A DNA stretch of 64,000 bases from Candidatus Sulfotelmatobacter sp. (GTDB lineage: Bacteria > Acidobacteriota > Terriglobia > Terriglobales > Acidobacteriaceae): assembly GCA_049693675.1 (NCBI GenBank), contig JBAVQD010000048.1, positions 2,324-66,323 of the forward strand. Direction: 5' to 3'. Of the stretch, positions 3,092 to 28,233 are shown in pieces. The translations under genes and the position numbers were made by a program. Positions within the stretch are counted from its first letter, which is position 1. Each line of letters opens with the position of its first letter. Under the pieces are notes generated by a model. The model searched no databases. It was not told the origin of the DNA and was given only the letters and a program-made list of their open reading frames with translations.

Positions 3092-3994
3092 ATGTCAAAC
3101 ACTATTCCCGCGATGCCCCCGGGCCAGTTCGAGGAGGGTATCCTCTCATTTCCCGGCGTGGAAGAGGCTAGGCGGGATCCACTTTACATAGACTCCGGTT
3201 ACATTCTTGATGAACTCAGTGACCACGCACCGTGGAAACTTTCGCTGCTTTACGGCGATGGAGCCGCGTTATCGATTCCTCTGGAAGTCATGTTCTTTGA
3301 ACCCCTGAAGGGGGCAAAGATAACAGTCTTTCGCAGACACAAGGCCAGTGGCCGCATCATTCCGTGTCAAATCTCTCTAGACAACCCAAGTCTTCGTGAC
3401 AGCTCACTGAATAAGTTGCCGGCGGATGAGGTGATGCGGCGTATCGTACCGCCGCGGTTCGACCCGACGCTGACTCCGTCCATCACGGCAACTTTAAATC
3501 TTGAGCAGAATATCTTTCTGACTCTTGGATTTCTAAAAGTTATCCAACTTCAGTTGTTGAACCCTGTATTGTTTGGCTGGGCTCCTGGGGCTGCGGCCGA
3601 CGGGGCAACCAGCGCTGCTCTTCGAGGCCTCGCGCGACGCAGTGCCGTGGTCACGGCGGACGCCGCTACACTGGCGACGCGTGTCGGGTCCGAGGTCTCC
3701 AGTCTTCCGGTAAATCGCTTTCAGCAGTTCCTGGAAGCCGCCCGGCGTATTTCCATGGCGGGAGCCTCCCCTGCGACGAAGGCCGACGCTATTGAGGCGG
3801 TGGCACAACGGCTGGGATTGGAAATCGGCGGTCGATCCGCCATGCAGGGCGGAAGGATTCTAATCGTCGCGAAGGACGCTAAGACCGCTCTCCAGATAGC
3901 TGCGGATGGTTCGGTGTCCTTCGGACGCGTCGTAATAAACGGAGGAGTACTAGACATCGTCCAGCCAGTTACCATCCGAGCCTTGAAGATATAG
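3092..3994 (+). CDS. hypothetical protein
   Basis: 300-aa ORF. The 5' half is visibly less GC-rich than its surroundings. No recognisable motifs. Confidence 0.5.
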   Translation: MSNTIPAMPPGQFEEGILSFPGVEEARRDPLYIDSGYILDELSDHAPWKLSLLYGDGAALSIPLEVMFFEPLKGAKITVFRRHKASGRIIPCQISLDNPSLRDSSLNKLPADEVMRRIVPPRFDPTLTPSITATLNLEQNIFLTLGFLKVIQLQLLNPVLFGWAPGAAADGATSAALRGLARRSAVVTADAATLATRVGSEVSSLPVNRFQQFLEAARRISMAGASPATKADAIEAVAQRLGLEIGGRSAMQGGRILIVAKDAKTALQIAADGSVSFGRVVINGGVLDIVQPVTIRALKI

Positions 3995-4022
3995 CTCGGT
4001 TAGCGCAGCAACCCCCGTCACT

Positions 4023-5717
4023 TCACTGCCGGTTCTTTAGTAGTTCTTCTTCCGTCTGTTGCGCTCGTTGCGCTTGATCCAGCAACTGCTTCGCCGCTTT
4101 GTTATTTGGATCGGCCGACGCTTGCCGGAAGCAGTCGATGGCAGAGGCATAATCCCCTGTATCCAAAAACGCAATCCCTTTATTGACCAGCGACTCGGAA
4201 GTTACAGTCGCCACAGCCGGCATCACGATCAGCCGGTTGTGCACGTGACTCACGCCCGGCACCGAACCGGCAAGCCATTCCGCCAGCGCGGAGTCCTCAA
4301 TGCCTTGCACCGCTCCATCGAGCGTTACATCGCGATCGTTTGACACCCACACTCTAAGATCCGCACCGCGCAGAGTCGGCGACGGAGCATCCTTCAACGT
4401 CTGCATCACATCGCTCTTTATTCTGGCCCGCCTGGCCGATTGAAATTTCAGATATCCCGCCCCTCCAACCAGCGCCGCCGCCAGCAAAACAATTATGACG
4501 CGCAGCAACAGCTTCGCGTTAAGACTACGCGGCGGCATAAACACATGCTGCGCAGTACTATTGATCACCGCCGGATCCGGCGAAGCAGGGCTCTGCACAA
4601 TCACACCGGAGGGTAGGGAACTGACGAGCATAGAAGCCGCGCTCGTCGTTGGTGGAACTCCTGGAGGAGTTACAACCGCAACGCCTGAGGCCGCCGAAGC
4701 TGGCGTAGCCTGCAAAGTCGGCCCTGGAGTCGCAGCGCCTGCTGTGACCGCGGCAACGCCGTGCGCCGTCACTTGATCCAGAGCCGCAACAAATTCTTCC
4801 GCCGTCTGAAACCGGTTCTCCCGCGATTTCTCCATCGCCTTTAGAATCACCTGCGACAGCGCGGAAGGAATATGCAGTTCCGGCTTCACCTCATGCGGAG
4901 GCCGCACACTCGTCTGCAGATGTTGCAGCATGAGCGCGTATGGAGTCTCGGCTTCGAACGGAAGTTGCGCCGTTATCATCTGGTACAGCACCACCCCCAG
5001 CGAATAAATATCCGTGCGCCCATCAACCTCTCCGCCAGCCTTTTTCCCCAGGAATTGTTCCGGCGACATATATAAAGGAGTGCCGACCACCATGCCGGTC
5101 ATCGTCATCTCCGGCCGGTCCTCGCCCGCAGCCTCGCGCAGCTTCGCAATTCCGAAATCGAGCACCTTGGCGGTCTCCTGCCCCTGCTCGTCGACCGTAA
5201 GAATAATGTTGCCCGGCTTCAAATCGCGATGCACGATGCCGAGCTTGTGCGCCACACCAATCGCCAGTCCTACCTGCCGCGCAATCCGAATGGCGCGCGG
5301 AACCGCCAGTGCGCCTTCTTTCTGAAGAACCTCACTCACGTTCTTCCCCTCCACCAGCTCCATCACGATGAAGGGTCTTCCATCTTCCGTGTAATCGAAA
5401 TCTTCCACCCGCACCGCATTCGGATGCCGCAGCTTGCGCGCAACAATGGCTTCCGTCTGAAAGCGCTGCAAAAAGCTGGCATTGCCCGCAATGTCATCGT
5501 TGACAATCTTGATGGCGCAAATCTCGTTGAACGTGAGATGACGTCCGCGATAAACCAGCCCCATGCCGCCGATCCCAATCCGTTCGATGATCTGATATTT
5601 ATTGCGGATGATCATCCCCGGCTGAAGTTCGTGCGCCACCTGCAGCCGCGTGTGATCCGTCGGACACACGTCATGCTCGGTGGAGTAAGTCTTCTGGCAT
5701 GCGGTGCAATATTTCAT
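4023..5717 (-). CDS. Ser/Thr protein kinase with N-terminal zinc-ribbon, TM segment, BON-like domain and TPR-like tail
   Basis: N-terminal zinc-ribbon CTACQ...CPTD. Hanks kinase motifs GIGGMGLVYRG, AIK, HRDLKPGNI, DFG, PLYMSPEQ. TM segment LLLRVIIVLLAAALVGGAGY. BON-like stretch DLRVWVSNDRDVTLDGAV...VSHVHNRL. Confidence 0.9.
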   Translation of the reverse strand: MKYCTACQKTYSTEHDVCPTDHTRLQVAHELQPGMIIRNKYQIIERIGIGGMGLVYRGRHLTFNEICAIKIVNDDIAGNASFLQRFQTEAIVARKLRHPNAVRVEDFDYTEDGRPFIVMELVEGKNVSEVLQKEGALAVPRAIRIARQVGLAIGVAHKLGIVHRDLKPGNIILTVDEQGQETAKVLDFGIAKLREAAGEDRPEMTMTGMVVGTPLYMSPEQFLGKKAGGEVDGRTDIYSLGVVLYQMITAQLPFEAETPYALMLQHLQTSVRPPHEVKPELHIPSALSQVILKAMEKSRENRFQTAEEFVAALDQVTAHGVAAVTAGAATPGPTLQATPASAASGVAVVTPPGVPPTTSAASMLVSSLPSGVIVQSPASPDPAVINSTAQHVFMPPRSLNAKLLLRVIIVLLAAALVGGAGYLKFQSARRARIKSDVMQTLKDAPSPTLRGADLRVWVSNDRDVTLDGAVQGIEDSALAEWLAGSVPGVSHVHNRLIVMPAVATVTSESLVNKGIAFLDTGDYASAIDCFRQASADPNNKAAKQLLDQAQRAQQTEEELLKNRQ

Positions 5718-5750
5718 GAGTTGCTCTGGGAATCAGCAATACTTATGTGG

Positions 5751-5796
5751 GGACAGCCGCCCCTTCGACAAGCTCAGGGCAGGCTCTCGGCTGTCC
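5751..5796. repeat. REP-like palindromic element (ggacagccg ... cggctgtcc)
   Basis: 9-bp perfect inverted repeat with a 28-nt spacer in the kinase/Sel1 intergenic region. Further small hairpins follow up to about 5850. Confidence 0.6.
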
Positions 5797-6021
5797 GCCG
5801 AGCGCAGCGAGGACTCAGCCGATTCCGCCCCAAGCGGCGACAAGCCGCCAATTCGCGTAAAAGAGTAGCACGGAATCCGTACCCAGCGTTACTTTCTAAC
5901 TGTGGCAGGAACGCGCGAGGGATGCTCGGCATTTCCGCACTCCGCATTGACTTCGTCTCTCAGCCGACTTAATATCGCCCCCATGTTCCCGCGGAATTTC
6001 AGGCCGAACGGGAATCCGCAC

Positions 6022-6816
6022 ATGAACGTTCGCCATTCACTCGCTAATCTTGTATTAATCTCTGCTGTCGCGGCAGCTCTTGCCTGCGGGCTCGTCTCCT
6101 CACAAACGCAGAATTTCCCCGCGCTTCACAAACAGGCCAAAGAAGGAAATGCCGAAGCCCAGTACGAATTAGCCAAAGACTATTACACCGGTACAGGCGT
6201 TCCCAAGGACTCCAAACAGGGGCTTGAGTGGTTGCGCAAATCCGCTGATCAGGGCCATCCCGGCGCGGAGTTCGCGCTGGCCGTCCTTTACAGAAAAGGG
6301 GAACTAAAAGATCCAAAGCAGGGATTAGTGTGGTTGCAGAAATCTGCAGCGCACAACAATGCCGCGGCCGAGTATGAATTGGGCTGCCTGTTTCGTGACG
6401 GTGAAGGCGGCGTTTCAAGAAATCCGCATGAAGCCGCATTATGGCTTCGCAAAGCCGCACGCCAAAAAAATGAGCTCGCTCAAAATGGCCTGGAGCGGAT
6501 GCTCAAGAAAGGCACTATCTCGCGGCAGGAAGCAAACTGGCGCGCTCCCGATCTGGTCGCAAAAAATACAGAACCGGTGATCCAAGCGAAAAGCGAGCCG
6601 CAGCCAGACCCAAAAACAGAAAACGCAAAGCCATTCTCTCTGCTCGAAGTAGAAAAAGGACTTCAGGGCGGAATCACCTGCAAGCGGCTCGCAACTCTCG
6701 TCGGCAAATTTAAAGTAGATTTTTCTCTAAGCGACGATATGCGTCAACGCCTCAGCAAAGCTGGAGCCGACGACAATTTGCTGGCCACGATTTCCGCTTC
6801 CCGGCGTCCGTTGTAA
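6022..6816 (+). CDS. Sel1-repeat (SLR) protein, secreted
   Basis: At least three Sel1 repeats (AEAQYELAKDYYTGTGVPKDSKQGLEWLRKSADQGH, AEFALAVLY..., AEYELGCLFRDGEGG...AALWLRKAA). Start placed at MNVRHSLANLVLISAVAAALA (signal peptide). The ORF track starts at a GTG at 5902. Confidence 0.85.
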   Translation: MNVRHSLANLVLISAVAAALACGLVSSQTQNFPALHKQAKEGNAEAQYELAKDYYTGTGVPKDSKQGLEWLRKSADQGHPGAEFALAVLYRKGELKDPKQGLVWLQKSAAHNNAAAEYELGCLFRDGEGGVSRNPHEAALWLRKAARQKNELAQNGLERMLKKGTISRQEANWRAPDLVAKNTEPVIQAKSEPQPDPKTENAKPFSLLEVEKGLQGGITCKRLATLVGKFKVDFSLSDDMRQRLSKAGADDNLLATISASRRPL

Positions 6817-6867
6817 TCTGCGCCTGCGGCCGCACGCGCGAAACTCCAAACTGGTCGTCCTCGGCAG

Positions 6868-7812
6868 TTAAGCGTTGGTTGCGCGATGCTTCGCAGCGGT
6901 AATCTTTGCAGTGCGCGCTGCAAGGTCTTCGAAAGAAGGTACGGACTCGGGAACGATCAGTTTCCGCTCGGGTGGCTGAACTCCAGTGCCAATCGCTTCC
7001 GTGAGCATCTCTAACGCCAGGTCAGTGATGGGACGTATATAAATTGTCGCCGCCAGCACTCCGCTTCGTACCCAGGCCTGTCCGGTCTTCGGCAAGCCAT
7101 CGCATCCGGTGAATGGAATCTTCAGCCAGCGCTCGCGGTCGCTTCCTGCGATCTCCTCAAAAGCTTTTCTCGCACCCGCTGCCATGCTGTCATCTTGCGC
7201 TCCCACCAGATCGATGTGCGTCTCTTGTGACGTGCGCAATCGCAACCACGAAGTGACTGCCCGGTGTGCACTCTGCTCCGTCCAGTTCGCTCGCATCGTC
7301 TTCACTTGAATATTCTCGGGCTTGGTCCGATTCATACCGGCAGTTCGCTCATGGGCCGCGGAACTGTTCGCTGGACCCTCGAGATATAAAATCGAACCGC
7401 CCTGCGGCAGTAACGCCGCAAACTGTTTGCCCTGAATCTCCCCCACCTCGCCGTGATCGGAACTGATGGAGAATACCGGCACCTGGCAAGTCTGCCGGAG
7501 TTGGTGAACATAATCCGCCTCGTGATTCAGAATCACCCAGCCAATATCCGCGGCCGTAGCCGCTCGCGCCACTTGCGGGAACCCGGTTCCACCCGCAGGC
7601 TCGAACACAATCGCATCGGGACGCGTCGCCGCCGCTCCCTGAATGTAGTGCAGCAACTGCTGGCTCTGCGTCACCGCATCATTGTTGGCGTGGATGATTT
7701 TCAGGTCCACGCCCAACCGCCGAGCAGCTTTCTCCGCCGCGGCCGCCTGCTCTTGCTGATAGTCGTTGTCGTCGTTGGTGAGAGAGACCAGGAAATTGAG
7801 TTTTTTCATCAC
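6868..7812 (-). CDS. periplasmic-binding-protein type I (sugar-binding/LacI-ligand-domain-like) protein without an obvious signal peptide
   Basis: MMKKLNFLVSLTNDDNDYQQEQ...GVDLKIIHANNDAVTQSQQL resembles ribose-binding-protein-like folds. 314-aa ORF. Confidence 0.7.
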   Translation of the reverse strand: MMKKLNFLVSLTNDDNDYQQEQAAAAEKAARRLGVDLKIIHANNDAVTQSQQLLHYIQGAAATRPDAIVFEPAGGTGFPQVARAATAADIGWVILNHEADYVHQLRQTCQVPVFSISSDHGEVGEIQGKQFAALLPQGGSILYLEGPANSSAAHERTAGMNRTKPENIQVKTMRANWTEQSAHRAVTSWLRLRTSQETHIDLVGAQDDSMAAGARKAFEEIAGSDRERWLKIPFTGCDGLPKTGQAWVRSGVLAATIYIRPITDLALEMLTEAIGTGVQPPERKLIVPESVPSFEDLAARTAKITAAKHRATNA

Positions 7813-8112
7813 CGCCCCAGGCCTCCATCATAGCCAACTTTCCGGCTCTTCGTTGGTAACCAGAGTAACGAAGGATTTCGCCTTCGATAATTTCAGGATT
7901 GCAATTTACAAACAATCGGACTACCAGAGAAGCGACGTCCTGGTTTTTATTTTCGTTGGAAAACCTCCTCGATGCCGTAACCCGTTGTCGCGGCTATATT
8001 TCTGAACCATCACGGGTGATAACCAACCGAATACCTCCACCCAACGGCGCGATTGCTTTATAGGCGCAGTTCTGCGGTAATCCAAAGCGGAAGATGTTTC
8101 TCTAAACTTTCT

Positions 8113-8472
8113 ATGAACACCGTATTGCCGCAAAAAATGGAATCTGTTGAAGACTCTGCCAGTCGGCCTGGGACGCAGCTTTTCGTGCGCTCGCAATCCG
8201 TAGTTTCACGCCGCGTCGCCGGAGAAACTTTGATCGTTCCCGTGCGCGGCAAAGTCGGAGATCTGGCGTCGATCTACAGCTTCAACTCAACCGGCTCTTT
8301 GATCTGGCAATCGCTCGAATTGCCCAAGTGCTTTGAGGAACTCGTCAGCGCTGTCGAAAGCGAATATGCGGTCGAGCGCGATCAGGCGGAGCAGGACGTG
8401 AAACAGTTCTTGCAAGACATGCTGGCGGCAGATTTGGTGCAAATTCGCGATTCACTGCAAATGGTGGGATAA
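8113..8472 (+). CDS. PqqD-family peptide chaperone (RRE domain protein)
   Basis: VSRRVAGETLIVPVRGKVGDLASIYSFNSTGSLIWQSL...ELVSAVESEYAVERDQAEQDVKQFLQDMLAADLV is a typical PqqD/RRE pattern. Start moved to the ATG at 8113. Confidence 0.85.
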   Translation: MNTVLPQKMESVEDSASRPGTQLFVRSQSVVSRRVAGETLIVPVRGKVGDLASIYSFNSTGSLIWQSLELPKCFEELVSAVESEYAVERDQAEQDVKQFLQDMLAADLVQIRDSLQMVG

Positions 8473-8484
8473 ATCAGGGGGACC

Positions 8485-9744
8485 ATGGAACAACTGAGTT
8501 ACGGAGCATTCAGCGCCGACCTGCACCAGCGTCAATCCGGTAAGCGCGCGCCCACGCAGGTTTCCATCGAAGTCACCCGCCGCTGTCCGCTGGAATGCCA
8601 GCACTGCTACAACAATCTTCCCATGGGCGATCAATCCGCCCGCAGCCGTGAAATGACCACCGAAGAACATTTCAAAATGCTCGACGAGTTAGTCGAGATG
8701 GGTTGCTTCTGGCTCCTCTACACCGGCGGCGAAATTTTCGCCCGCAAGGACTTTCTCGAGATCTACACCTACGCCAAGAAAAAAGGCTTCCTGATCACTC
8801 TCTTCACCAACGGCACGATGATCACGGAAAAGATCGCAGACTATCTGGTCGAATGGCCGCCCTTCGCCATCGAGATCACGCTCTACGGCCGCACCCGCGA
8901 AATCTACGAAGCCCTCACAATGATCCCCGGCTCCTACGACCGCTGCCTGCGCGGTATCAAACTCCTGCGCGAAAGAGGGTTGCCGCTCAAGCTGAAAACG
9001 GTCGCGACCAGCATCAACAAGCATGAAGTTGTCTCGATGAGGCAGTTCGCCGAAGAAGAACTGGGAGTCGAGTTCAAGATCGACGGACAGATTAATCCCC
9101 GTATCGACTGCTCCCAAAGTCCGCTCGCCGTGCGGCTCACACCCGAAGAGGTTGTCGCACTTGACCTGCATTCTCCGAAAGGAATAAGCGAATACCGGAG
9201 GTTAGCAAAACACGATTTGGAAAAGCCGCCGAACCTTACTCAAATCGACACTCAGTATTTTTGCGGGGGCGGTATGGAGTCATTTGCCGTCAACGCATAT
9301 GGGGAGATGGGGATTTGTATCCTCTCGCAACAAGAAACCTTCGATGTCCGGCAGGACGGTCTGAGAAAGTCATGGGACGATTCTCTGTATTCGTTGCGAA
9401 TGCGCAAACGCACGCGCCTGACAAAATGCATCGAGTGTCGAATCCAATCCTTGTGCGCAATGTGTCCTGCTAATGGCGAAATGGAAAATGGCGATCGCGA
9501 AACTCCGGTAGCGTTTCTTTGCAACGTTGCTCATCTGCGGGCCGTCGCGGTAGGAGTCGATATCCCTGCCCACGGAGAGTGCGAATTCTGCGCCGGAGGA
9601 AGTGAGCACGACTCGCTGCTCGAATCAGCACGCCGCATAGCGACTCGGGAAATCGATGTAGAAAGTTGGACGGCGCCGCATCAGCTTTTACCGATATTAA
9701 ACAACGCGTCTGCCGGCGGATGCGGAAATTGCGCCGGCCACTAG
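8485..9744 (+). CDS. radical SAM / SPASM-domain peptide-modifying enzyme
   Basis: CPLECQHCYN (CxxxCxxC) near the N-terminus and a GGE motif (YTGGEIF). C-terminal auxiliary-cluster pattern CGGG...GEMGIC...CIECRIQSLCAMC...FLC. Starts 12 nt after the PqqD stop. Confidence 0.9.
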   Translation: MEQLSYGAFSADLHQRQSGKRAPTQVSIEVTRRCPLECQHCYNNLPMGDQSARSREMTTEEHFKMLDELVEMGCFWLLYTGGEIFARKDFLEIYTYAKKKGFLITLFTNGTMITEKIADYLVEWPPFAIEITLYGRTREIYEALTMIPGSYDRCLRGIKLLRERGLPLKLKTVATSINKHEVVSMRQFAEEELGVEFKIDGQINPRIDCSQSPLAVRLTPEEVVALDLHSPKGISEYRRLAKHDLEKPPNLTQIDTQYFCGGGMESFAVNAYGEMGICILSQQETFDVRQDGLRKSWDDSLYSLRMRKRTRLTKCIECRIQSLCAMCPANGEMENGDRETPVAFLCNVAHLRAVAVGVDIPAHGECEFCAGGSEHDSLLESARRIATREIDVESWTAPHQLLPILNNASAGGCGNCAGH

Positions 9745-9807
9745 CTAAGGATTTGAACGTCGGGTGCGAACAGGCGCCGAAAGAAGATGCATAAGCGTGG
9801 GGGCTGA

Positions 9808-9978
9808 ATGAAGGATGAATTGAGGCACGCCGAGGGCAAAAAGTCCTACGAGCCACCGCTCCTTAAGACGATCAATTTGCGACCTGAGGAAGCGGTTCTG
9901 GGACACTGCAAAACTTCCACCGGCGGCGGGATCCAGATTGGATGTCAGTTTTTTACTTGCAGTTCCGTCGGATCCTAG
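9808..9978 (+). CDS. candidate RiPP precursor peptide, 56 aa (absent from the ORF track, which lists only ORFs >=60 aa)
   Basis: Hand translation: MKDELRHAEGKKSYEPPLLKTINLRPEEAVLGHCKTSTGGGIQIGCQFFTCSSVGS*. Charged leader followed by a small-residue, 3-Cys core with a C-terminal Ser. A purine-rich tggggg lies 5 nt upstream of the ATG. It fills the gap between the rSAM and kinase genes. Confidence 0.6.
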   Translation: MKDELRHAEGKKSYEPPLLKTINLRPEEAVLGHCKTSTGGGIQIGCQFFTCSSVGS

Positions 9979-10030
9979 AAGTCCGGCACGGAGCATACGG
10001 AAATAATCGCCGGTATCGGAAGGTTAGCAG

Positions 10031-11008
10031 ATGGAAGCCCTCAAGACATCCTGCGCAATTCATACGAGTGGTTTTTCCGTGGGTGGGGTCTCGGTGCAAT
10101 TATTCGGGAATTGCTTCGATGATGTTTCCTTGGTGGAGTCGCTTCTTCCTTTTCGCGGGGACGAGAACAATTCCGACATTCATCTTTCGGTTGAGTGGGC
10201 CGGCAGTTTTACTCCGCCCCGTAGCCGTCCGCTTTTCGACTCGGGAACGACTTGGAGGCTCTACGAAGACGGAGCCGGATTTCAGTTTGACTTCAATGCT
10301 CCCGCTTTTGGCGAGCGCCCGTACAAGCGGCTTTTGGCCGACAACCTCTTTCGATCGTGCACGCTGCAGATGAGCGAGGATTCTTTTCGCGGATCTCAGT
10401 ACACGCCAGCGCCGCTGGACTACCCCCTCGACGAACTCCTCATCATGCACCGCCTCACCCAGGAGCCGGCTATCGAGCTCCACGGAGTCGGCATCGTCGG
10501 CCCCGACGGCGCAAACAACTTATTCGTCGGTCACTCCGGAGCAGGGAAGAGCACCACCGCTCGCCTCTGGACCTCGCTCCACACGGTAGAGATTCTGAGC
10601 GACGATCGCATCATCGTTCGTGAACACCCTGTTCGCGAACACTCGGCTGCTGAAGATAAAATCCGCAACGAAAAATCTTACGAAGGTAACCTCTCTGCCG
10701 GCCCTGCTCAGATCTACATGTACGGCACGCCGTGGCATGGCGACGCGCATTTTGCCCTTCCCCAATGTGCCCCGCTGAAAAGAATTTTTGTTCTCGAACA
10801 CGGCCACGGTAACGTTCTTACACACCTCACGCGGAGCCAGATGGTCGCCGAACTTTTCGCACGCGCCTTCGTCCCGTTCCACCGCCACGAGTATGTGGAC
10901 CACGCCCTGAGCTTCCTGGAACGCGTTGCCGATTCCGTTCCTTGTTATCGGTATTCTTTCGAGCCCGACGAGCGCGCCGTAGAAAAAATCCTCCAATTCA
11001 ATGACTGA
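10031..11008 (+). CDS. HPr-kinase-like P-loop kinase (RiPP-associated HprK homologue)
   Basis: LHGVGIVGPDGANNLFVGHSGAGKSTTA Walker A in an HprK-C-like context, followed by LSDDRIIV. 8-nt overlap (ATGACTGA) with the next CDS. Confidence 0.8.
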   Translation: MEALKTSCAIHTSGFSVGGVSVQLFGNCFDDVSLVESLLPFRGDENNSDIHLSVEWAGSFTPPRSRPLFDSGTTWRLYEDGAGFQFDFNAPAFGERPYKRLLADNLFRSCTLQMSEDSFRGSQYTPAPLDYPLDELLIMHRLTQEPAIELHGVGIVGPDGANNLFVGHSGAGKSTTARLWTSLHTVEILSDDRIIVREHPVREHSAAEDKIRNEKSYEGNLSAGPAQIYMYGTPWHGDAHFALPQCAPLKRIFVLEHGHGNVLTHLTRSQMVAELFARAFVPFHRHEYVDHALSFLERVADSVPCYRYSFEPDERAVEKILQFND

Positions 11009-14000
11009 AAGTGAGTCCGATTCACAGAGGTTCGAGACGCTCAGCCGCGAGCTTCTGAACAAGGGATTGACCGTGCGCTTCCAGGCGCGCGGCGCCAGCA
11101 TGTCCCCCTGTATCCGCGACGGCGAGATTGTCCATGTTACCGCCGTAATCGTGAGCAAATTACGTAAGGGCGATATTGTACTTACGAAAGGTCATAGCGG
11201 ATTCCGGGTTCACCGCCTCGTGCTTATCGATCAGGATAAGAATCTTTTCATGACTCGAGGCGATTGCGGACGGCAAGACGATCCTCCGGTGCACGCCGAC
11301 CAAATCCTGGGCATTGTTCTCGCCAAAGAAGTGAGGCTTGGAACGAAAATCGTGACGGCGAACTTGAACGGTTTCACCGGCAAATTGTTGCAGGGTGCTG
11401 TGCGCGCGCAATATCTCGCGGGCAAGCTCCTTCGCATCGCAACTTCGCGCTCCTCAAATATCGCGCTGGCTTTGCTCTTGCTGTTGTCGCTCGTCTCCTA
11501 CTCGCGCGCCCAGGTCGTAATTGACGCCACTACGTCGACCTCAAGCTCTCTGAATGCTCGTGGTGCGCAGGCCGTCACGTTTACGCATACAACAGCCGCC
11601 TCCACAACTGGACTTTTGATCGTCGGCGTGGCCATGGACACGGTCAATGCGACTACAACGACGGTGAGTTCGGTCACCTACAACGCCACCGGGCTGACTT
11701 TTCTGGGCGCGCAGGACGACGCTGCCAAAAGCCGCCGGGTCGAGATGTGGTACCTGCTCAGCCCAGCCGCCGGAACTAACAATGTTGTCGTAACGGTTAA
11801 CATACCCGGAGCTGTAAATGAGCGTGTGGGAGTCGTCGCAGGTGCAGTTACTTTCACCGGAGTGAATCAAGCCGTTCCCGTCGGTCCATTCGTATCCGCG
11901 AGTGGCGCAGCCGGAACAGCTTCTTCTGACACCGTACCCAGCGTTCTCAACGGCATGGTCATGGATACTCTCGCAGTCGCAGAAAATGTGACCGTTACAG
12001 TCCCCGGCACTCAAACCTCTCTCTGGAACGTAAGATCAGGCGCTGTTCTGGCCGGCGACGTGAGGAGCACCGGAAGCACTGCCCCAGGTTCCCCCAGCGT
12101 TACCATGACTGAGACTTTCAGTGCCGCTTCCAATTGGGCGCAAGGCGCGGTATCCATCAACCCCGCGGCCCAGGTGATCGTTGACGCCGCTACGTCAATA
12201 GAGCAGGCAATCAACGCTTCCGGAATACAAACAGTAACCTTCGCTCATACCACGGCCACAACCACCACCGGGCTCTTGATCGTCGGCGTAGCCATGAACA
12301 TTGTGAACGCGCCCACCACAACTGTAAGCTCGGTCACGTACAACGGCACCGCACTCCATTTTCTGGGAGCGCACAATGATGCAGGCAACACTCGGCGCGT
12401 CGAAATGTGGTACCTGCTCAGTCCTGCGGCGGGAACTTTTAACATCGTGGTTTCCGTCGACATACCCGGAGGCACCGCCGAACAACTTGGCGTGGTGGCA
12501 GGCGCCGTAACCTTTACCGGAGTCGACCAAACCGTTCCACTAAGTCCCTTTGTCTCCGCAAACGGCGCAAACGGCGCAAACTCGCAGCTCGATGTTCCCA
12601 GCGTGATTAACGGAATGATTCTGGATACGCTGTCGGTCGCCGGAAATCAAGCCGTTACCGTTCCCGGTCCTCAGGTCTCAGAGTGGAATACAAATACCGG
12701 CGCCGGTGCGACGGATGTTCGCAGTTCCGGCAGTGCTCGCACTGGAGCGCCCAGCGTCCCTATATCCGAAACTTTCAGCGGCACCTCGAACTGGTCGCTG
12801 GGAGCCGTGTCCATCAATCCCTCCACCGCCGATATTGCCGTTACCACTAGTGTGGGCAGTGCAGTTTTTCTCGGACAAAATACAACCTACAACATCACCG
12901 TCTCCAACAACGGATATTCAGCCGCGAACTCAGTGACGCTCACGGACACTCTGGCTTCTGGAATGACACTGGTCTCTGTCACTCCCAGCGCGGGAACCAC
13001 CTGCACCGGATCCGGCCCCATTACTTGTACTCTTCCCACTCCGTTTGCCAGTGGGGCCACCGCTACCATCGCGGTGGTGGAAACTGCCAGCGCCACCGGC
13101 TCATTTGCCAATACCGCCACCATCACGGATTCCGGAAGCCCGCCCGATCCCAACACTGGAAACAATTCCTACACAGCCGTCGCCACTGTGCAGTCAATCT
13201 CATGCGCCAGTGTGTCGCAGGCGACAACTGGAACTAATCTCTCCGGAATCTTGAACACTTACTATCCCGGAACCACCAGCGTAGCCGCTGGAGCCACCTC
13301 CATCCCTGTAGGTGCGGCAACCGGCGCTGGGAGCGCCATTGCCGCCGGCAATCTTCTGCTGATTATCCAGATGCAGGATGCCAGCATTAACGATGCCAAT
13401 ACCATCGCTTACGGCAACGGCAGCAGCGGCCAGGGATTCACCAACCTGAACAGCGCAGGCGATTACGAGTTCGTCACCGCGCAAAATGCAGTTCCCGCAA
13501 CTGGAGGATCAGTAACCATCACGGGAGCCGGCACCGGCGGTGGAACGGTTTTCGCTTATCACTCCGCCGCTGTCTCGGCAAACGCGGGCCAAAGCAAGTA
13601 TCAGGTAATCGTGGTGCCGCAATATTCCACCGCATCATTCAACGCAACCACTCCGCCTACTGCACTCGCGTGGAATGGTTCAACCGGTGGCGTGCTCGCG
13701 CTCGATACTTCCGGCACTTTGACTCTGAGCGGAGCCACTATCGCCGTGGATGGTCTCGGCTTCCGCGGTGGGGCGGGAATGCAATTGACTGGCGGAGCCG
13801 GTGCCGCTACCGATTATGAAGCGCCTGCTCCCGCAACCTACACCGGGGCCGCTGGCGGCGAAGCCGGTTACGATGCCAACAAGGGCGAAGGTATTGCCGG
13901 CACACCTGCGTGGGTAGAATCGGGCACAACTTTTCTGCAAACGAATACCGGCTATCCCAGCGGCACTGCGGGCACTGACGGCAGCATGGCTCGCGGAGCG

Positions 14001-17000
14001 CCCGGCAATGCGGGCGCCGGAGGTACCGACTCCGATCCCGTCAACAATGATCAGAACGCCGGCGGCGGAGGCGGTGCCAACGGCGGTGCCGGAGGCTTTG
14101 GTGGTGACTCGTGGAACACAAATCTTAGTGTAGGCGGCGAGGGTGGTACAGTTTTTCCCGCAACTATCAATCGCGTCGCCATGGGCGGCGGCGGCGGCGC
14201 GGGAACGCGCAACAATTCCGATGGAGATAATCGGGCTAGTGGCGGCGCAACTGGGGGCGGCATCATCATCATTCGTACCTACGGCCTCAGTGGGACAGGA
14301 ACTCTAACCGCTAACGGAATCTCCGCCTACAACGGAACTCTCAATGATGCCGGCGGCGGCGGTGGCGCCGGCGGAAGTATTGTGGTTCTTTCCGCCAACG
14401 GAGGCGAGAGCGGACTCACGCTGCAAGCCAACGGTGGAAACGGCGGCAACGCCTGGGAGATTGAGCCCTATACCCTCGGCAATCGGCACGGCCCTGGCGG
14501 CGGCGGTGGCGGCGGTGTCGTTCTTATCTCTGGCACCCCTGCAAGTATTAGCCTGAGTGGCGGAGCCAGCGGCCTCACCGAAAATCCCGGCGTCCCCTAC
14601 GGGTCCACCGCCGGCGCGGCCGGCACAAGCGTGACCAACGCTTCCATCACCCAAACCTCCGGCACACAGTCCGGCGCGCAATGCACTCCCGATATGACGC
14701 TGGGCAAGAGCCATGTCGGCAACTTCACCCGCGGATCAACCGCCAGCTACACCATCCCGGTCGAAAACTTGAGCCCATACGGCCCGACCAACGGCACCGT
14801 AACCGTGAACGATACGATGCCGGTCGGCCTCACTCCTACCAGCGCCACCGGTACCGGATGGTCGTGCTCGATTGCCTCCCAGACCGTGAGCTGCGTTACC
14901 TCCGCAGTTCTGCCGGCAAACAGTTTTTACCCTTCGCTAACCATCAACGCGAATGTCTTGCAGACCGCTCCTTCCGTCGAAACCAACACTGCGTTAGTAA
15001 GTGGCGGTGGTGAAGTGAATCTGGCGAATGACAGCGCTACCGACGTAGCCAACGTAATCTCAACCGCCGATCTCAGCATCACCAATGCGGCATCGCCTGA
15101 TCCGGTCGTGGCAGGCGGCAACATTACTTATACGCAGGTAGTCACCAATAACGGTCCCAGCGCCGCCGACAACGCAACCATGGTGGAAGCCGTTCCCAAC
15201 AACACTACATTTGTTTCGATGGCAGCACCCGCTGGGTGGAGTTGCACCACGCCAGCCGTTGGCAGCACCGGCAACGTAGTTTGCACCAATTTGAATATGG
15301 CGGGCAGTACCGCAGCCACTTTCGCACTAGTCGTTAAAGTAAACACCGGCACTGCGAACGGCACTGTCATCACCGACACCGCGAAAGTAAGTTCGTCAGT
15401 CAGCGATCCAAATTCGGCGAACAACACCGCCTCGGCTTCCACCATCGTCGGTTCCTCTGCCGGAGCCGACTTAGTCGTCACCAATGCCGCTTCACCAAAT
15501 GGCGTCGCGCCCGGCGGCAACATTACTTATACGCAGGTAGTCACAAATGTCGGTTCCCTTACGGCCACAGCTGCAACTTTCACTGAGTCAACCTCGCCGG
15601 TGGCCGATGTAACCTTCGTTTCCGTCTCGGCCGCGGCTGCTCCAGGTTGGACTTGCACTGCTCCGCCCGTAAGCTGCACCAATCCCAGCGTAGCCGCAGG
15701 CGCAACGGGTACCATCACCGCCATATACAAGGTGAATGCCGCCACGCCAATCGGGACGCTCATCACCAACACCGCGACAGTCAACGCCGCCAACCAAACC
15801 TCCGGTCCCAACACCGCGATCGCAAGCGACACCGTAACCGCAACGACTTCGCAATCCGATCTTGGTCTCACCACCGCTGCAACCCCGCTCTCGGTTTTTG
15901 CCGGCAATGATATTACTTATCTCCAGACCATAACCAATAGCGGCCCCGCCGCGGCCACGAGCGTGAGCTTCCTGGAGGCGGTACCGACCAACACTACTTT
16001 CGCCTCCGTCTCGGCTCCTGCTGGTTGGACGTGCACAACGCCCGCCGTAGGCGCAACCGGAAATATAACCTGCACCGATCCCACTTTGGCGGCCACGACC
16101 TCGGCGTCAATCATCGTCGTTGTCAACGTTCCGTCGAGTGTTACCGCTGCCGCGATCGCAGCGACGTCCTCGGTTTCCGCGACCAACGCTCTCACCATCA
16201 CAACCAACACCAGCACCCCTGTTACAACCGCTTGCGATTTGGCGGTCAGCAACAGCGGCACACCAAGCCCGGTCGCCGCCGGCGGCACCATTACTTACAC
16301 TCAGGTTGTAACGAACACTGGTCCGAGCAACTGCGCCAATCTGACTTTCAATGAAGCGATCCCGACTAACACCACCTTTACATCGTATGGCGGAGCACCC
16401 GCGGGCTGGACTTGCACATCCTTCGCCACCGGTTGCACCAATCCCAGCTTCGCCCCCGGATCGATCAGTACCTTCACCGTGGTCGTGACCGTAAACGCGG
16501 GCACCGCCGCGGGAACCATCATTACCGACACAGACACGGTTACCACCACAACCCGCGATACCAACACGAGCAATAATTCCGCAACCGTTAACATACCGGT
16601 GGCGAGCGCTACTCAAGCCGACCTCAGTGTGTCGAATTCCGCCAGTCCGAACCCCGTCTCGGCCGGGAACAACATCACTTACGCGCAGACCGTAGTGAAT
16701 ACCGGACCTGCGAGCGCCAGCACAATTTCGCTCGCCGAAAGCCTTCCCGCGAATACCACCGCAGTGTCGCTGACCGGACCGGCCGGCTGGACTTGCTCGG
16801 TGGGAACGCTGACCTGCACCATCTCCACTCTGGCCGTCACAACCGCGAACTTCACATTCGTCGTAAAAGTGAACAGCAACGCAACCCCCGGGTCCACGAT
16901 CACGCAAACTGATACCGTCACTTCCGCCAATGATCCGAATCCCGGCAATAACAGCGCCTCTGCAAGCGTTCTCGTAGCCGGCTCGGCTGATCTGTCGGTT

Positions 17001-20000
17001 ACGAACACCGCGAGCCCCGTACCCGTAGTAGCAAACAACAACATTACTTATACGCAAGTTGTCACCAACGCCGGACCAAGCATAGCCACCGCTGCCAGCT
17101 TTACCGAGACTACCCCGGCGAATACGACATTCTTTTCCATCGGCACGCTGCCTGCCGGATGGTCCTGCAGCACCCCCGCAGTAGGAAGCGCGGGGACCAT
17201 CAACTGCACCAATCCCAGCTTTGCGCCAGGTTCAGCCAGCTTTACCGTTGCGCTTAAAGTTACTGCCGGCACCGCTGCCGGAACGGCGATCAACGATATC
17301 GCTGCTGTGAGCTCATCAACGTCCGATCCGAACTCGGCCAACAACACGGCAATTGCCACCGATGTCGTCGCTCTCGCAACTCAGGCCGACTTAATCGTAA
17401 CCAATAGTGCGACGCCAACCTCCGTCGCCGCGGGAAGTAACATCACTTATACGCAGAGCGTCACCAATAATGGTCCGGCTGCGGCAACAACCGTAAGCTT
17501 TACTCAAAGCACGCCGCCGAATACCACTTTCCAATCCATCACAACTCCGGCCGGCTGGACTTGCACCACCCCCGCCGTCGGAGCTACAGGCACGATTACT
17601 TGTACGATTGCCACGCTGGCGCTCAATGCAAGCGCTAGCTTCACGTTAGTGTTGCAGGTAAATGCTGCAACCGCGTCCGGCACAAACATTGCGGAGGCCG
17701 CAACCGCTACTGCGTCGAACATCGTGCCCGGCCTTACCAGCAACACCGCCGTGGCAACGGTTGTCGTGGCCAATCCGAATAGTGCCAGTCTTGCGATCGT
17801 GAAGACAGCTATGCCCAGCCCTACGGTTGCCGAGGGCGACACGCTCACTTACACGATTGGCATCACCAATAACGGTCCATCGTCCGCAACGAATGTGACC
17901 GTTACCGATCCACTGCCAGCGGATGTTACTTATCTTTCTTTGACCACCAGTGCTGGCACCTGCTCGGAAGCTGGTGGAACTGTAACCTGTTTGCTGGGAA
18001 CGATCGCCAACGGCGGCACAGCTACGATAACTATCCTCACCCTCGCTGGCGCACCGGGAATCGCTACAAACACAGCCAGCGTGGTTGCGGGCCAGATGAC
18101 CACTCCGAATACATCGACACAGGTCGAGACCATCACTGCCGCCACCAGCATCAAGCTGGAATCGTTCGTAGCCCAGACCGGCCAGGATAAAACCGGGGCA
18201 CACCGCGTCGTGCTCCTCTGGAAAACAGGCACAGAAGTGCACAACCTTGGCTTCAACATTTATCGCGAACAAGCAGGCGAACGCGTTCGCCTGAATTCTT
18301 CGCTGATCGCCGGCTCGGCGCTGCTCATGAACGGTGCCCTCCCCAAACACTCCGGCCGTACTTACAGCTGGATCGATTCCTCCGCGAATGCCGGCAGTGC
18401 TCCCTACTGGCTCGAAGACGTGGATGTGAACGGAACCCGTATCCTTCACGGCCCAGTTTCCGCGACCGCATCCAGCAACTCCCAGGTCGCGAGCAACGCC
18501 AACGCAACTCCTAGCGTAATGTTGAATCATCTAAACCAGAGCCAGCCCGCTGCGTCTGTTGATGGGTTCAGTCATCGCGTCGAAGATACTTCGCCGAATT
18601 CTTCTCCTACGGCCACGCAACAGCAGAAACAGTTCGCCCTTGCGGCACACTCCGCCATCAAGATTTACGTAAAGCACGAAGGCTGGTATTGCGTGACGCA
18701 ACCGCAACTTATCGCCGCCGGCCTCAGCCCTAATGTCGATCCAGCTTATCTCCATCTTTACGCCGAGGCCGTCGAGCAGCCCATCGCGATCACCGGAACC
18801 ACCGCCGGTGTCCGCGGCTTTGGTCCGCAAGCGGCAATTTATTTCTATGGCACAGGTATCGACACACAATATTCCGGCACCAGAGTTTATTTCCTCGTTA
18901 CACAGGATTCGAAAGGGGCGCGAGTTCACAACTTGCCCGTATCCACGGGCTCGAACCAGCCTCCCGCAAGTTTCCCCTTTACCGTGGAACTCGCTCCTCA
19001 TACAACCTATTACTCGGCCCTGACCACCGCGAACGGCTACAACTTCTTCGGACCTCTCGTCTCCTCCACTGCCGTCGATGAGACCATTCAGGTTCCCCAT
19101 CTTGATTCCACATCCACAGAATCCGCAAAGTTAGATGTGATTCTGCAAGGCGTTATTCTCGGCGTTCCTCATGACGTGACCGTTACGCTGAACGGCACCT
19201 CGCTCGGCGACGTCACCTTCACCGGGGAAGCAAAAGGTACGCTCGACGTAACTTTGCCGCTAGGTGTTTTACAGGAAGGCGCCAACACCGTCACTCTCAC
19301 GTCGCAGAACGGTGAATACGATTACAGCCTGCTGCAATCGATCCGCATCACCTACCCGCACACTTATGCCGCCGACTCCAACGAATTGACGTTTACTGCC
19401 CGCCCCGGCGAAGAACTCAGTCTCACTGGATTCACGCAATCATCGGTCGCCGTGGTCGACATTACCGACCCCAACCAACCCGTACAACTTACGCCCCAGG
19501 TTACGACCGATCCGAAGTCGGAAACTTACACAGCTGCGATACAGGTGCCGTGGTCCACCACCAATCCATCCACCCCGGCCCAGCACACGCTAATGGCTGT
19601 GGTTGGGACCACCGTCGCTTCTCCAGCCGGAATCCGTCAGAATCATCCTTCACGCTGGTATAGCGCTCAATCCGGCAGCGAGATTGTGATGGTCACGTCC
19701 GACGAGTTCTCCGGCGCTCTTGCCCCGCTGAAGCGCGCGCATGAAGCGTTAGGCAAGTCATCCGCACTCGTGTTGGTCGACGATCTCTACGACGAATTTA
19801 CTTTTGGCCAGCACAATCCGCTCGCCATCCGCAGCTTCCTGCAAACCGCCGTCACGGCTTGGCACACTACGCCCCATTACCTCTTACTCAATGGCCGCGC
19901 ATCATTTGATCCACGTAATTATCTCGGTTTTGGACATCTCGATTTCGTCCCCACGCAGATCATCGCCACCAGCGGCCTGATGACCGCCTCTGACGGATGG

Positions 20001-20741: not shown

Positions 20742-21770
20742 TTAAGCCCGCGCCATATCAGCAACCACAGCCGCTCGCCGCAGAGGTTCGGCGATGGCCT
20801 TCATCACTTTCTCAAATCCCGCGAAGTCGAGCGATTGCGCTCCATCGGAGAGCGCCCGCTCCGGGCAGGGATGCACTTCTATAATCAATCCATCGGCTCC
20901 CACCGCCACCGCTGCCCGCGAAACTGCGGCGATCAGACTCTGTTTTCCAGTTCCATGCGAAGGATCGGCGATCACCGGCAAATGCGAAAGATCGCGAGCC
21001 AGCGCCACCGCTGCCAAATCGAAGGTGTTCCGCATCTCGGTTTCGAACGTCTTAATGCCGCGTTCGCACAGCACGACTTCACCGTTTCCTCCCGAAAGCA
21101 AATATTCCGCCGCCAGCAGCCACTCCTTTACCGTGGCCGACGGACCGCGCTTCAACAGGATCGGCCTCTTAACTGTGGCCAGACGCCGCAACAGCGCGAA
21201 GTTCTGCATGTTCCTCGCTCCTACCTGCAACATATCCACGTACTCGCAGATCGTGTCCACATCCTCCGTGCTCATCACTTCCGTGACCACAGGAAGCCCA
21301 GACTCCTCACGCGCTTCGCGGAGAATCTTCAGCGCCTCTACCCCCAATCCCTGAAAGTCGTAGGGCGATGTTCTTGGCTTGTAAGCCCCGCCGCGCAGCA
21401 TCGTCGCTCCCGCCCGCTTCACCGCATGCGCCGTATCCAATAACTGCTCGCGAGACTCCACCGAGCATGGCCCCGCAATAATCACCACGCCCGGGCCGCC
21501 AATGCTCACCCCGCCCACATTCACCACAGTGCGCTCCGGTTTTACCTGCCGGCTCACCAGCTTGAAAGGCTGCGCAATGGCAACCACATTCTCTACTCCG
21601 CCCGCCACCGCCAGCGCCTCGATTTCGTGCCGGCGTCCATTCCCCACCGCGGCCACGATCGTTCGCTCCACGCCGCGCGTGACGTGCGGCTGGTAGCCTG
21701 CCTCGCGAATGCGCTCGATCACGTGAGCAATCTGCTGCTCGGTGGCTTTCTCTGACATGTTCACAATCAT
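20742..21770 (-). CDS. aroF: 3-deoxy-7-phosphoheptulonate (DAHP) synthase, type I-beta with N-terminal ferredoxin-like regulatory domain
   Basis: [59 protein letters not shown] upstream. Confidence 0.9.
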
Positions 21771-27389: not shown

Positions 27390-27700
27390 AGCTTGAGCAG
27401 GTTCACCTGATCCACGTTCAACGTCTCCCGCGTGCGATAAACCGCGATAATGATCGCCAGTCCAACCGCCGCTTCCGCCGCGGCCACCACCATCACAAAG
27501 AAAACAAATACCTGCCCCGCCAGCGCGTGCCAATGCGCCGCAAACGCCACAAACGAAAGATTCACGCCGTTCAGCATCAGCTCAATCGACATAAAGATGG
27601 TGATGATATTGCGCTTGATCAGAAATCCGACCACGCCGCAGCCAAATAAAAATCCGCTGAGCAGCAAATAATAAGATAGTGGCACATACGACGGAACCAT
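27386..27700 (-). CDS. nuoK: NADH-quinone oxidoreductase subunit K
   Basis: 104 aa with 3 TM segments. [17 protein letters not shown] motif. Confidence 0.9.
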
Positions 27701-28218: not shown

Positions 28219-28233
28219 GAATCAGTACTGTCT

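Follow-up and report, generated by a model that had tools for sequence, protein, structure and literature searches.

A strictly conserved Terriglobia operon as the probable locus of an uncharacterised RiPP family combining a radical SAM enzyme, a P-loop phosphotransferase-like protein and a signal-peptidase-like domain

What is made by an operon that sets a recognition element for peptides that are synthesized ribosomally and then modified after translation (RiPP recognition element, RRE), a radical S-adenosylmethionine (SAM) enzyme, a 56-amino-acid (aa) open reading frame (ORF), a P-loop phosphotransferase-like protein and a signal-peptidase-like domain side by side? The question is raised by 64,000 nucleotides (nt) of Candidatus Sulfotelmatobacter sp. 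(Acidobacteriota, Terriglobia), positions 2,324 to 66,323 of contig JBAVQD010000048.1 (assembly GCA_049693675.1, forward strand). This whole stretch is called the window, and positions are counted from its first nucleotide. An earlier note had proposed an unclassified RiPP-like cassette at 8113-11450. Our analysis indicates that the operon is probably the biosynthetic locus of an uncharacterised RiPP family, widespread in Terriglobia, that joins the logic of linear polyphosphorylated peptides (LPPs) to radical-SAM crosslinking. Its parts are as follows.

8113-8472, + strand: gene for the PqqD-type RRE, 119 aa (Pfam PqqD, E 1.1e-14).
8485-9744, + strand: gene for the radical SAM/SPASM enzyme, 419 aa (Pfam Radical_SAM, E 1.2e-20; seven-Cys SPASM pattern).
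9808-9978, + strand: gene for the precursor peptide, 56 aa, MKDELRHAEGKKSYEPPLLKTINLRPEEAVLG followed by HCKTSTGGGIQIGCQFFTCSSVGS.
9808-9903, + strand: predicted leader, aa 1-32, with Y14-E-P-P-L-L and LRPEEAVLG.
9904-9975, + strand: predicted core, aa 33-56, with H-C-K, a variable G/S/T/P-rich loop, C46, C51 and C-terminal G-S.
10031-11008, + strand: gene for the ScmC-family P-loop phosphotransferase-like protein, 325 aa (PEPCK/HprK fold).
11001-11420, + strand: LppS-like serine peptidase domain (archaeal/ER-type, S26B) at the N-terminus of the giant ORF, lacking a membrane anchor ahead of it.
11001-20729, + strand: giant ORF, 3,242 aa, with the peptidase domain, a transmembrane segment, DUF11 repeats and a C25 domain.
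11466-11525, + strand: sole hydrophobic segment of the N-terminal half of the giant ORF in a hydropathy scan, aa ~156-175, NIALALLLLLSLVSYSRA followed by QVV.
19686-20696, + strand: C25 (gingipain/PorU-type) cysteine peptidase domain, aa 2896-3232 of the giant ORF (Pfam Peptidase_C25).

The five co-oriented, packed or overlapping frames described earlier are all present at their coordinates on the + strand, and the genes lie close together; the start of the giant ORF overlaps the stop of the P-loop gene by 8 nt. The RRE gene has alternative starts at TTG 8053 and ATG 8137, and 8113 is preferred because the orthologue in one of the compared loci (L001) supports it. Only the end of the cassette had been misplaced. 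The peptidase 'frame' opens a gene of 9.7 kb as its N-terminal domain, so the operon ends at 20729; the former boundary at 11450 cuts this gene. The whole co-directional gene string, 8113-20729 (+), forms one operon.

Homologous loci were collected by pattern-scanning GTDB species representatives with the P-loop family, which gave at least ~600 matching stretches. The best 80 loci were analysed, and distant diversity was represented by five loci (L085 and L087-L090) retrieved by exact-protein look-up. The labels of the 80 closest loci are almost all Acidobacteriota, and exact and near-exact copies of the radical SAM enzyme were found in metagenome-assembled genomes of Candidatus Sulfotelmatobacter (Terriglobia). 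The order PqqD, radical SAM, peptide, P-loop, S26-like domain and N-region of the giant protein is the same in 80 of 80 loci by tblastn; the PqqD gene is 5' of the radical SAM gene wherever the contig reaches that far, and three of the 80 contigs stop inside the radical SAM gene. Over these loci, identity is 74-84% for the radical SAM enzyme, 51-76% for the P-loop protein and ~51-87% for the RRE. A periplasmic-binding-protein gene upstream is common to 28 of the 80, which indicates vertical inheritance within a sub-lineage.

Chance is far from explaining the arrangement, with one gene order kept in 80 of 80 species-level genomes. A chance ORF was rejected: the small ORF lies between the radical SAM and P-loop genes in all 80 loci and is intact and conserved in 79. 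In the exception, L063 (~7770-8900), a frameshift joins the precursor ORF in frame to the P-loop gene, probably as an artefact of assembly or of the frameshift and not as a natural fusion. The five core parts (RRE, radical SAM enzyme, precursor, ScmC protein and peptidase) recur at the distant loci L085, L087 and L088, where P-loop identity is only 34-38%. Accessories differ by lineage and comprise the C25 protein, NTP_transf_5, a methyltransferase, a GNAT domain and an ABC transporter. Homologous loci thus retain both features on which the earlier note had made its proposal depend, a conserved small ORF and co-occurrence of these genes.

The small ORF has a GGGGG ribosome-binding site 5 nt upstream. 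Judged by its pattern of conservation, it represents a genuine RiPP precursor family with the classic signature of a conserved leader and a variable core. We extracted 83 peptides from the loci and compared leader motif and identity over 86. All 83 contain [LVI]RP[ED]EAVL[GT] followed by xCK and all end in Ser, preceded by Gly in 82. Exactly three Cys are found in 79 of the 83, in the spacing C-x11-16-C-x3-6-C, and the last Cys is followed by five (rarely six) residues, so that the ORF noted earlier is real and precursor-like and the description 'Cys-rich' generous. The leader motif YxxPx[LVI] occurs in 85 of the 86 peptides, within the consensus YxxPxLxTISLRPEEAVLG. From Tyr to Gly, the leader block has a fixed length of 19 aa and a mean pairwise identity of 83%, against 40% in the core after xCK, whose middle is hypervariable and rich in G, S, T and P. 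The mid-operon position of the precursor, which had also been proposed, is upheld by all 80 loci.

An independent database search returned 122 peptides, every source-named one of which is annotated 'hypothetical protein'. Among the 120 that were listed, 119 end in GS and 94 distinct cores occur. Peptides of the same kind are encoded at the distant loci L085 (...LRPEEAVLGACKMVGISGPAADDCTTGSCMSLGS), L087 (...LRPEEAVLGNCKIAGASGPLQGSCVSPAVCYTTTS) and L090 (...LRPEEAVLGFCKSASIGGPVASDCTTLSCSSAGS), and L088 has two copies, ...KAEEAVL(S/Q)NCK...GS, with only two Cys each. A search of the window for a second precursor copy found none. [Y/W]xxPx[L/V/I] is the motif of lasso and LPP leaders (PMC13381572), and YxxPx[LVI] in the present leaders agrees with the motif bound by lasso-type RREs. 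By the -3/-1 small-residue rule, cleavage is most likely after Gly32, which is favoured because Val at -3 and Gly at -1 suit S26 enzymes. Cleavage after Ala29 is the alternative, and would reproduce the Tyr-to-site spacing of LppA. A Ser near the core N-terminus, the candidate site by analogy with LPPs, is not conserved.

The closest experimental precedent is that of the LPPs of Bacillota, described with the genes LppA/B/K/S/N/D (Popov et al., Nat Commun 2026, PMC13381572). There, LppB serves as the discrete RRE, and the HprK-like kinase LppK puts several phosphates on Ser3 of the core; LppN and LppD are an NTP (nucleoside triphosphate) transferase and an exporter. LppS, alongside the HprK-like kinase, is an experimentally proven, RRE-dependent, soluble signal-peptidase-like leader peptidase. 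According to the authors, no RiPP pathway had previously been seen to use peptidases of this sort, and LPPs occur in Bacillota only; the article text names neither radical SAM enzymes nor Acidobacteria. Their Supplementary Data 1 contains an unstudied cluster 3 of the sequence similarity network (SSN), in which signal peptidase I (SpI)-like peptidases of Acidobacteriota, Myxococcota, Chloroflexota and candidate phyla are entered together with their co-localised RREs, with precursors as 'ND'. The peptidase and RRE of the window are 42% and 44% identical to one pair of this cluster, so the pair is catalogued and the system is not described. None of the curated cutoffs (GeoRSP, SynChlorMet, PapB, MftC, HprK) is reached; the trio of RRE, SpI-like peptidase and HprK-like kinase, which the earlier note did not recognise, was published in 2026 as LPP.

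As had been supposed, the first protein is an RRE of the PqqD type. Its best NCBIfam matches are lasso-type PqqD chaperones, all below cutoff, with lasso_PqqD_Bac at the top (E 8e-11). Identity amounts to 28% with LppB (E 5e-9) and to 44% with OLE53998.1, an RRE from an acidobacterium (E 2e-24).

The S26B-type peptidase of the earlier note proved to be homologous to LppS; it is not a short gene, being the ~140-aa N-terminus of the 3,242-aa DUF11/C25 protein. Aligned by BLASTP over residues 9-104 with the LppS sequence, which was taken from the PMC13381572 supplement, the domain shows 27% identity (E 2e-12; hhalign probability 97.8%), and S33, H71 and D94 align with the proven catalytic S29, H68 and D93 of LppS. 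Within the family, S33 (GASMSP), H71 (HR) and G87-D88 are invariant, and D94 is present in at least 90% of sequences. Identity to OLE53994.1 is 42% (E 4e-26). The best PDB sequence matches are SEC11A/C (E about 0.1), again with the catalytic residues aligned. The domain resembles SipW/Sec11 (S26B) in its Ser-His(-Asp) arrangement and its motifs GxSMxP, HR and GD...D, and differs from them in having no N-terminal anchor, a predicted cytoplasmic location and an RRE-associated context like that of LppS. A true S26B signal peptidase of the SipW/Sec11 type was rejected on the missing anchor and on a TIGR02228 score below cutoff.

The hydropathy scan found no hydrophobic segment before aa 156 of the giant ORF. 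Because the domain has no N-terminal anchor and lies ahead of the sole hydrophobic segment, it is predicted to be cytoplasmic, and would therefore be on the wrong side for signal-peptide cleavage and on the same side as the precursor. Its fusion partner is not constant. The frame continues for more than 1000 aa or to the end of the locus in 71 of 79 loci, and the remainder end as proteins of 150-260 aa. In L087 the peptidase is a standalone protein of 178 aa that adjoins the precursor, and a separate 1,130-aa C25 protein has its own N-terminal signal peptide. In L085/L086 it is standalone and upstream of the RRE, at a locus without a C25 protein. In L088 it forms the N-terminal part of a GNAT acetyltransferase; this locus has an ABC transporter and again no C25 protein. 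Because the peptidase is present at loci without a C25 protein, standalone in L085 and GNAT-fused in L088, we assign it to the peptide pathway.

SipW-type peptidases process specific secreted proteins. The domain might be a dedicated SipW-type signal peptidase for the DUF11/C25 protein to which it is fused, with the RiPP genes as mere neighbours. This would suit the 71 of 79 loci in which peptidase and giant protein share a frame, the internal signal-peptide-like segment of the giant protein with its SRA/Q site, and the existence of SipW-type enzymes for particular secreted proteins (SSN cluster 2 in PMC13381572). We nevertheless regard it as very unlikely. Without the N-terminal anchor that true S26B enzymes have, the domain would lie on the cytoplasmic side, away from the signal-peptide site; it matches the soluble LppS (E 2e-12) better than SEC11 (E about 0.1); it stands beside the RRE, radical SAM, precursor and ScmC genes at L085 and L088, which have no C25 protein; and in L087 it is a separate gene beside the precursor.

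The giant ORF itself begins with the peptidase domain and the hydrophobic segment, followed by two tandem domains and an AgmC_N-like region; then come at least 10 DUF11 repeats and, at the C-terminus, a PorU-like region that holds C25. Pfam matches are to DUF11 (E 6e-135, 10 stretches) and Peptidase_C25 (E 2.6e-69, model positions 2-373 of 374). The motifs SGH3110GS and MDC3144LNG, which recur in the 1,130-aa C25 protein of L087, point to His3110/Cys3144 as the putative catalytic dyad. The type IX secretion system sortase PorU (NF033707) was rejected as an identity, with 218.3 bits against a cutoff of 420 and only the C-terminal ~690 aa with C25 aligning. The segment at aa ~156-175 is a putative signal-anchor or internal cleavable signal peptide with an SRA/Q site; its equivalent in L001 starts with Met and resembles a canonical signal peptide. 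Next, at 11511-12830 (aa ~171-610), are two tandem domains of ~215 aa (QVVIDATT...RRVEMWYLL...GAVSINP) without a Pfam or NCBIfam match. One copy of this domain precedes the C25 region in the 1,130-aa protein of L087, and the domain seems to be a conserved module that accompanies C25.

The radical SAM enzyme has the predicted CxxxCxxC motif (C34/38/41) and, beyond it, the full seven-Cys SPASM pattern, C260-x12-G-x4-C278, C315xxC318x5C324xxC327 and C346. All 3+7 Cys are invariant among homologues of 42-82% identity. The nearest solved relatives of the family profile are SkfB (2e-16) and PqqE (1.7e-13), the sulfatase maturase following at 1.6e-4. On the question, left by the earlier note, of whether the enzyme sides with peptide or non-peptide enzymes, it sides with the former. 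Its sequence features make it a peptide-type SPASM enzyme outside every curated family. A C-terminal extension past SPASM (9580-9741, aa 366-419) carries two extra CxxC pairs, C366/C369 and C413/C416, and could hold a fourth metal site; it is kept in Terriglobia orthologues and is absent or different in the distant L085, L088 and L089.

These relationships bear on two further explanations. An automated tool would probably label the locus an ordinary ranthipeptide or sactipeptide cluster, in which the P-loop, peptidase and giant genes would be unrelated neighbours. A radical SAM-SPASM enzyme, an RRE and a Cys-containing peptide are indeed present, and the best solved relative of the radical SAM profile is the sactisynthase SkfB. 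This explanation is highly improbable, given that the P-loop and peptidase genes are retained in 80 of 80 close loci and in distant loci with other neighbours, that the genes are overlapping or tightly spaced, and that the scores for PapB (46.6 vs 340 bits), StsB (82 vs 625) and AlbA (49.9 vs 850) are low. With sactipeptides and ranthipeptides (SkfB, AlbA, CteB, PapB) the operon shares an RRE-dependent radical SAM-SPASM maturase and a Cys-containing core. It differs from them in its separate RRE protein and its extra phosphotransferase-like enzyme and S26B-type peptidase, and the thioether, which in those classes joins Cys sulfur to an alpha carbon (sactipeptides) or a beta/gamma carbon (ranthipeptides), is a proposal here.

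Alternatively, the peptide could be the precursor of a peptide-derived redox cofactor, similar to mycofactocin or PQQ, and not of a secreted product or signal. The best full-length NCBIfam alignment of the radical SAM enzyme is indeed with the mycofactocin maturase MftC (residues 16-325), the enzyme is unusually conserved (74-84%), flanking synteny in 28 of 80 loci suggests vertical inheritance, the C-terminal dipeptide is invariant, as in MftA, and the operon has no exporter. That such a cofactor is made seems to us very improbable all the same: a hypervariable core (40% identity, about 70-94 distinct cores) is atypical of a cofactor precursor, the MftC score of 95 bits is far under the cutoff of 265, genes like MftD/E/F or PqqB/C are not present, and the operon goes together with a surface protein and, in L088, with an ABC transporter. 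Mycofactocin and PQQ as such were rejected on the MftC score, on precursors ending in GS and not GVY, and on the absence of MftD/E/F from the neighbours. A lasso peptide was likewise rejected, with neither the asparagine-synthetase-like cyclase (C) nor the transglutaminase-like protease (B2) in the operon.

The P-loop protein had been taken for a kinase of the HprK family. Its relatives fall into 3,991 clusters at 50% identity (E ≤ 1e-3), and its family was assigned with 46 diverse homologues and a structure model. Among the 46, NCBIfam matches were to TIGR04355 HprK_rel_B (43), ScmC (41), PEPCK models (31), HprK_rel_A (28) and hpr-ser (25), and 27 matched Pfam Hpr_kinase_C, to which the window protein has no match. 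The HprK_rel_B matches are weak (best E 4e-9), and the window protein itself is unmatched. Precomputed Pfam annotation of the relatives gives PF27840 ScmC. The AlphaFold model is confident (predicted local distance difference test, pLDDT, 91.3), and Foldseek places it nearer to PEPCK (E 1e-7) than to HprK/P (1kkl, E 3.9e-4), with a PEPCK-like N-terminal domain. Taken together, fold and family matches identify the protein as a member of the ScmC family (PF27840), and neither as HprK proper nor as part of the PadeK/LppK Hpr_kinase_C family; of the HprK assignment, the PEPCK/HprK fold and the matches of 43 of 46 homologues to HprK_rel_B stand. A bona fide HPr kinase/phosphorylase was rejected, with TIGR00679 and Hpr_kinase_N+C unmatched by the window protein and only weak hpr-ser matches (best E 4e-6) in 25 of the 46. 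A lineage-specific insertion (REHPVREHSAAEDKIRNEKSYEGNLSAGPAQ) at aa ~200-226 (10628-10708) has very low model confidence and is absent from L001 and most relatives, whose match splits around it.

In lasso-peptide kinases, whose target is a conserved Ser at the C-terminus of the precursor, a His-Lys-Asp-Asp motif was shown to be essential (PMC9266682). H151, K173, D191 and D192 of the P-loop protein correspond to this motif, and the protein thus shares both fold and motif with the HprK-superfamily peptide kinases. Conservation over the 46 homologues is 45 for H151 and 46 each for K173, D191 and D/E192. The role as a Ser kinase is still the weakest link of the model. With the rest of the model kept, the ScmC protein could instead be an ATP-dependent partner of the radical SAM enzyme and RRE, as a scaffold or by activating residues for elimination or crosslinking, or could phosphorylate another acceptor. 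ScmC, HprK_rel_B and the window family are always paired with radical SAM/SPASM and PqqD proteins (NCBIfam descriptions), the whole-protein fold is closer to PEPCK than to HprK/P, Hpr_kinase_C is not matched by the window protein, and the radical SAM and ScmC genes overlap in L089. We consider this unlikely, on the strength of the conserved lasso-kinase H-K-D-D motif (PMC9266682), the invariant C-terminal Ser, as in kinase-associated lasso precursors, the LPP precedent that combines the same types of peptidase and RRE with a kinase, and the co-occurrence of NTP_transf_5 at distant loci.

How, then, does the operon compare with known systems? With LPPs it shares the discrete lasso-type RRE, the YxxPx[L/V] leader motif, an archaeal-type SpI-like leader peptidase with an aligned Ser/His/Asp triad and a P-loop enzyme of the HprK superfamily. 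NTP_transf_5, the family that partners lasso and LPP kinases, occurs in its distant relatives L085 and L087 (7238-8464); in L085 (4668-5666 and 9051-10517) there is, besides it, a CMAS-type methyltransferase with an N-terminal membrane region. The window and the 84 close loci have neither of the two. L088 is a variant with an LppS-like/GNAT fusion, two PqqD genes, two downstream precursor genes and then an ABC transporter (3522-4532, 4657-4830, 5307-5516 and 5723-7563). There are also differences from LPPs. LPPs have no radical SAM enzyme and a product described as linear, whereas the radical SAM/SPASM enzyme is an invariant part of the core here. The LPP leader, YxxPxVLxHQxIxFET, is cut after Thr, and the leader in the window reads LRPEEAVLG-xCK. 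LppK is of the Hpr_kinase_C type and modifies Ser3, whereas the ScmC-family P-loop protein accompanies precursors with an invariant C-terminal Ser and conserved Cys. The MsbA-like exporter (LppD) and LppN have no counterpart in the window operon, where a giant C25 surface protein is the fusion partner of the peptidase.

The paeninodin-type lasso peptides (PadeK, ThcoK, SyanK, PsmK/PsmN) are similar in their B1-type RRE, their YxxP-type leader, their HprK-superfamily kinase with His-Lys-Asp-Asp and their strictly conserved C-terminal Ser, which is the phosphosite there (PMC9266682). They differ in that the window has a radical SAM enzyme in place of cyclase and B2, a serine leader peptidase and a ScmC-family P-loop protein. 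The kinship suspected earlier with GeoRSP and HprK-related kinase B is a distant one, all scores being far below cutoffs. GeoRSP (TIGR04302 PqqD, TIGR04303 radical SAM/SPASM, TIGR04355) has the same trio of PqqD, radical SAM/SPASM and HprK-like P-loop proteins, with weak matches (GeoRSP_rSAM 65.4 vs 400, geo_PqqD_fam 18.1 vs 100). SynChlorMet (TIGR04248 ScmD, TIGR04249 ScmC, TIGR04250/04251 ScmE/F) has this trio too, and P-loop homologues of the window protein are in PF27840; ScmD (19.9 vs 100), ScmE (90 vs 400) and ScmF (46.6 vs 400) are far from their cutoffs, and there are two radical SAM enzymes there and one here. No papers on GeoRSP or SynChlorMet were found, both apparently having been defined bioinformatically and without a described product. 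A literature search on HPr kinase, radical SAM, RiPP and PqqD found nothing relevant, one peatland paper on biosynthetic gene clusters giving only generic ranthipeptide counts. Each component is thus of a known kind: the trio of RRE, SpI-like peptidase and HprK-superfamily protein has experimental precedent, and the trio of radical SAM, PqqD and ScmC/HprK-B proteins is known as orphan families. What is new is that a single, strictly conserved operon unites the two logics, that its precursor family is defined, and that it occurs in Acidobacteriota with a recurrent fusion of peptidase and giant C25 protein.

Beyond the observed gene content, conservation, homologies, catalytic residues and precursor signature, we propose an order of steps, a crosslink chemistry, a phosphorylation site and a cleavage site. 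The discrete PqqD-type RRE would bind the 56-aa precursor through the YxxPxL leader motif and hand it to the radical SAM/SPASM enzyme, which would install one or more crosslinks at the three conserved Cys. Thioethers are the most likely form; a Cys46-Cys51 disulfide with one link at Cys34 is an alternative. The ScmC-family enzyme would move phosphate from ATP to the peptide, for which the invariant C-terminal Ser is the best candidate on the paeninodin-type precedent. The LppS-like domain, facing the cytoplasm and tethered to the membrane, would then cut the leader within EEAVLG, likely after Gly32, with the help of the RRE. The fusion may merely tether the peptidase to the membrane, and a housekeeping signal peptidase could split the two halves at SRA/Q. 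A more extended version is doubtful: a new RiPP class in which one peptide undergoes radical-SAM crosslinking, C-terminal (poly)phosphorylation and signal-peptidase-like leader removal, coupled to the giant surface protein such that the tethered peptidase releases the peptide at the membrane and the C25 domain then processes it or attaches it covalently at the surface.

Several results weigh against the operon being such a RiPP locus, or against particular steps. The P-loop protein taken alone gives only generic AAA/ABC matches in Pfam, NCBIfam and PDB phmmer searches, with no family above threshold. Because it is a ScmC and not an Hpr_kinase_C protein, kinase activity on the peptide is an extrapolation, and the phosphosite is uncertain because LppK modifies Ser3 of the core and not a C-terminal Ser. 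The Pfam SPASM model does not match the radical SAM enzyme, its NCBIfam matches (AhbD, NirJ, MftC, ScmE, GeoRSP_rSAM, PapB and others) are all far below cutoffs, and its chemistry cannot be deduced from sequence. The first ~140 aa of the giant ORF score 41.5 bits against TIGR02228 sigpep_I_arch (E 1.2e-10), under the cutoff of 51.85, and a single-sequence structure model of this domain was unusable (pLDDT 47.8). Its fusion to a secreted protein leaves room for a role in that protein's own processing. There is no transporter or exporter within the operon, and a homologue search of the window and 84 close loci for NTP_transf_5 found none.

The operon is bounded by housekeeping genes on the opposite strand, on the left by the periplasmic-binding-protein gene (6868-7812) and on the right by a DAHP synthase gene (20742-21770). 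A promoter and terminator scan, RNA folding of the spacer between peptide and kinase genes, and an Rfam scan of the 5' part of the operon found nothing. Further upstream lie genes for a Ser/Thr protein kinase with BON at its C-terminus (4023-5717, -) and for a Sel1-repeat protein (5902-6816, +); only the closest relatives (L005, L006, L038 and L077) share their synteny, and they have no evident link to the operon. Two ORFs of 544 and 300 aa (1363-2997 and 3092-3994, +) have no Pfam match at E ≤ 1e-4. Downstream, at 22304-33056 (-), a nuo-type NADH:quinone oxidoreductase block with three Proton_antipo_M subunits and a NuoG-like Fe-S/molybdopterin subunit forms a housekeeping context.

In soil, Acidobacteriota rank with the most abundant bacteria, and hardly any of their RiPP products have been characterised. 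Hundreds of species-level genomes have the operon; its radical SAM enzyme is unusually conserved, and its precursor family is sharply defined and annotated only as 'hypothetical'. It would extend the signal-peptidase-like leader-peptidase logic from Bacillota to Gram-negative soil phyla and join it to radical-SAM chemistry. The orphan families ScmC, HprK-related kinase B, GeoRSP and SynChlorMet would gain a testable substrate model, a precursor with an invariant C-terminal Ser and three conserved Cys. We found no described precedent in the literature for a RiPP leader peptidase recurrently linked to a 3,000-aa C25 surface protein, and this linkage may point to a function at the cell surface. 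If the C25 domain does process or attach the peptide there, the product would be a component of the surface or matrix, or else a signal, and not a free antibiotic.

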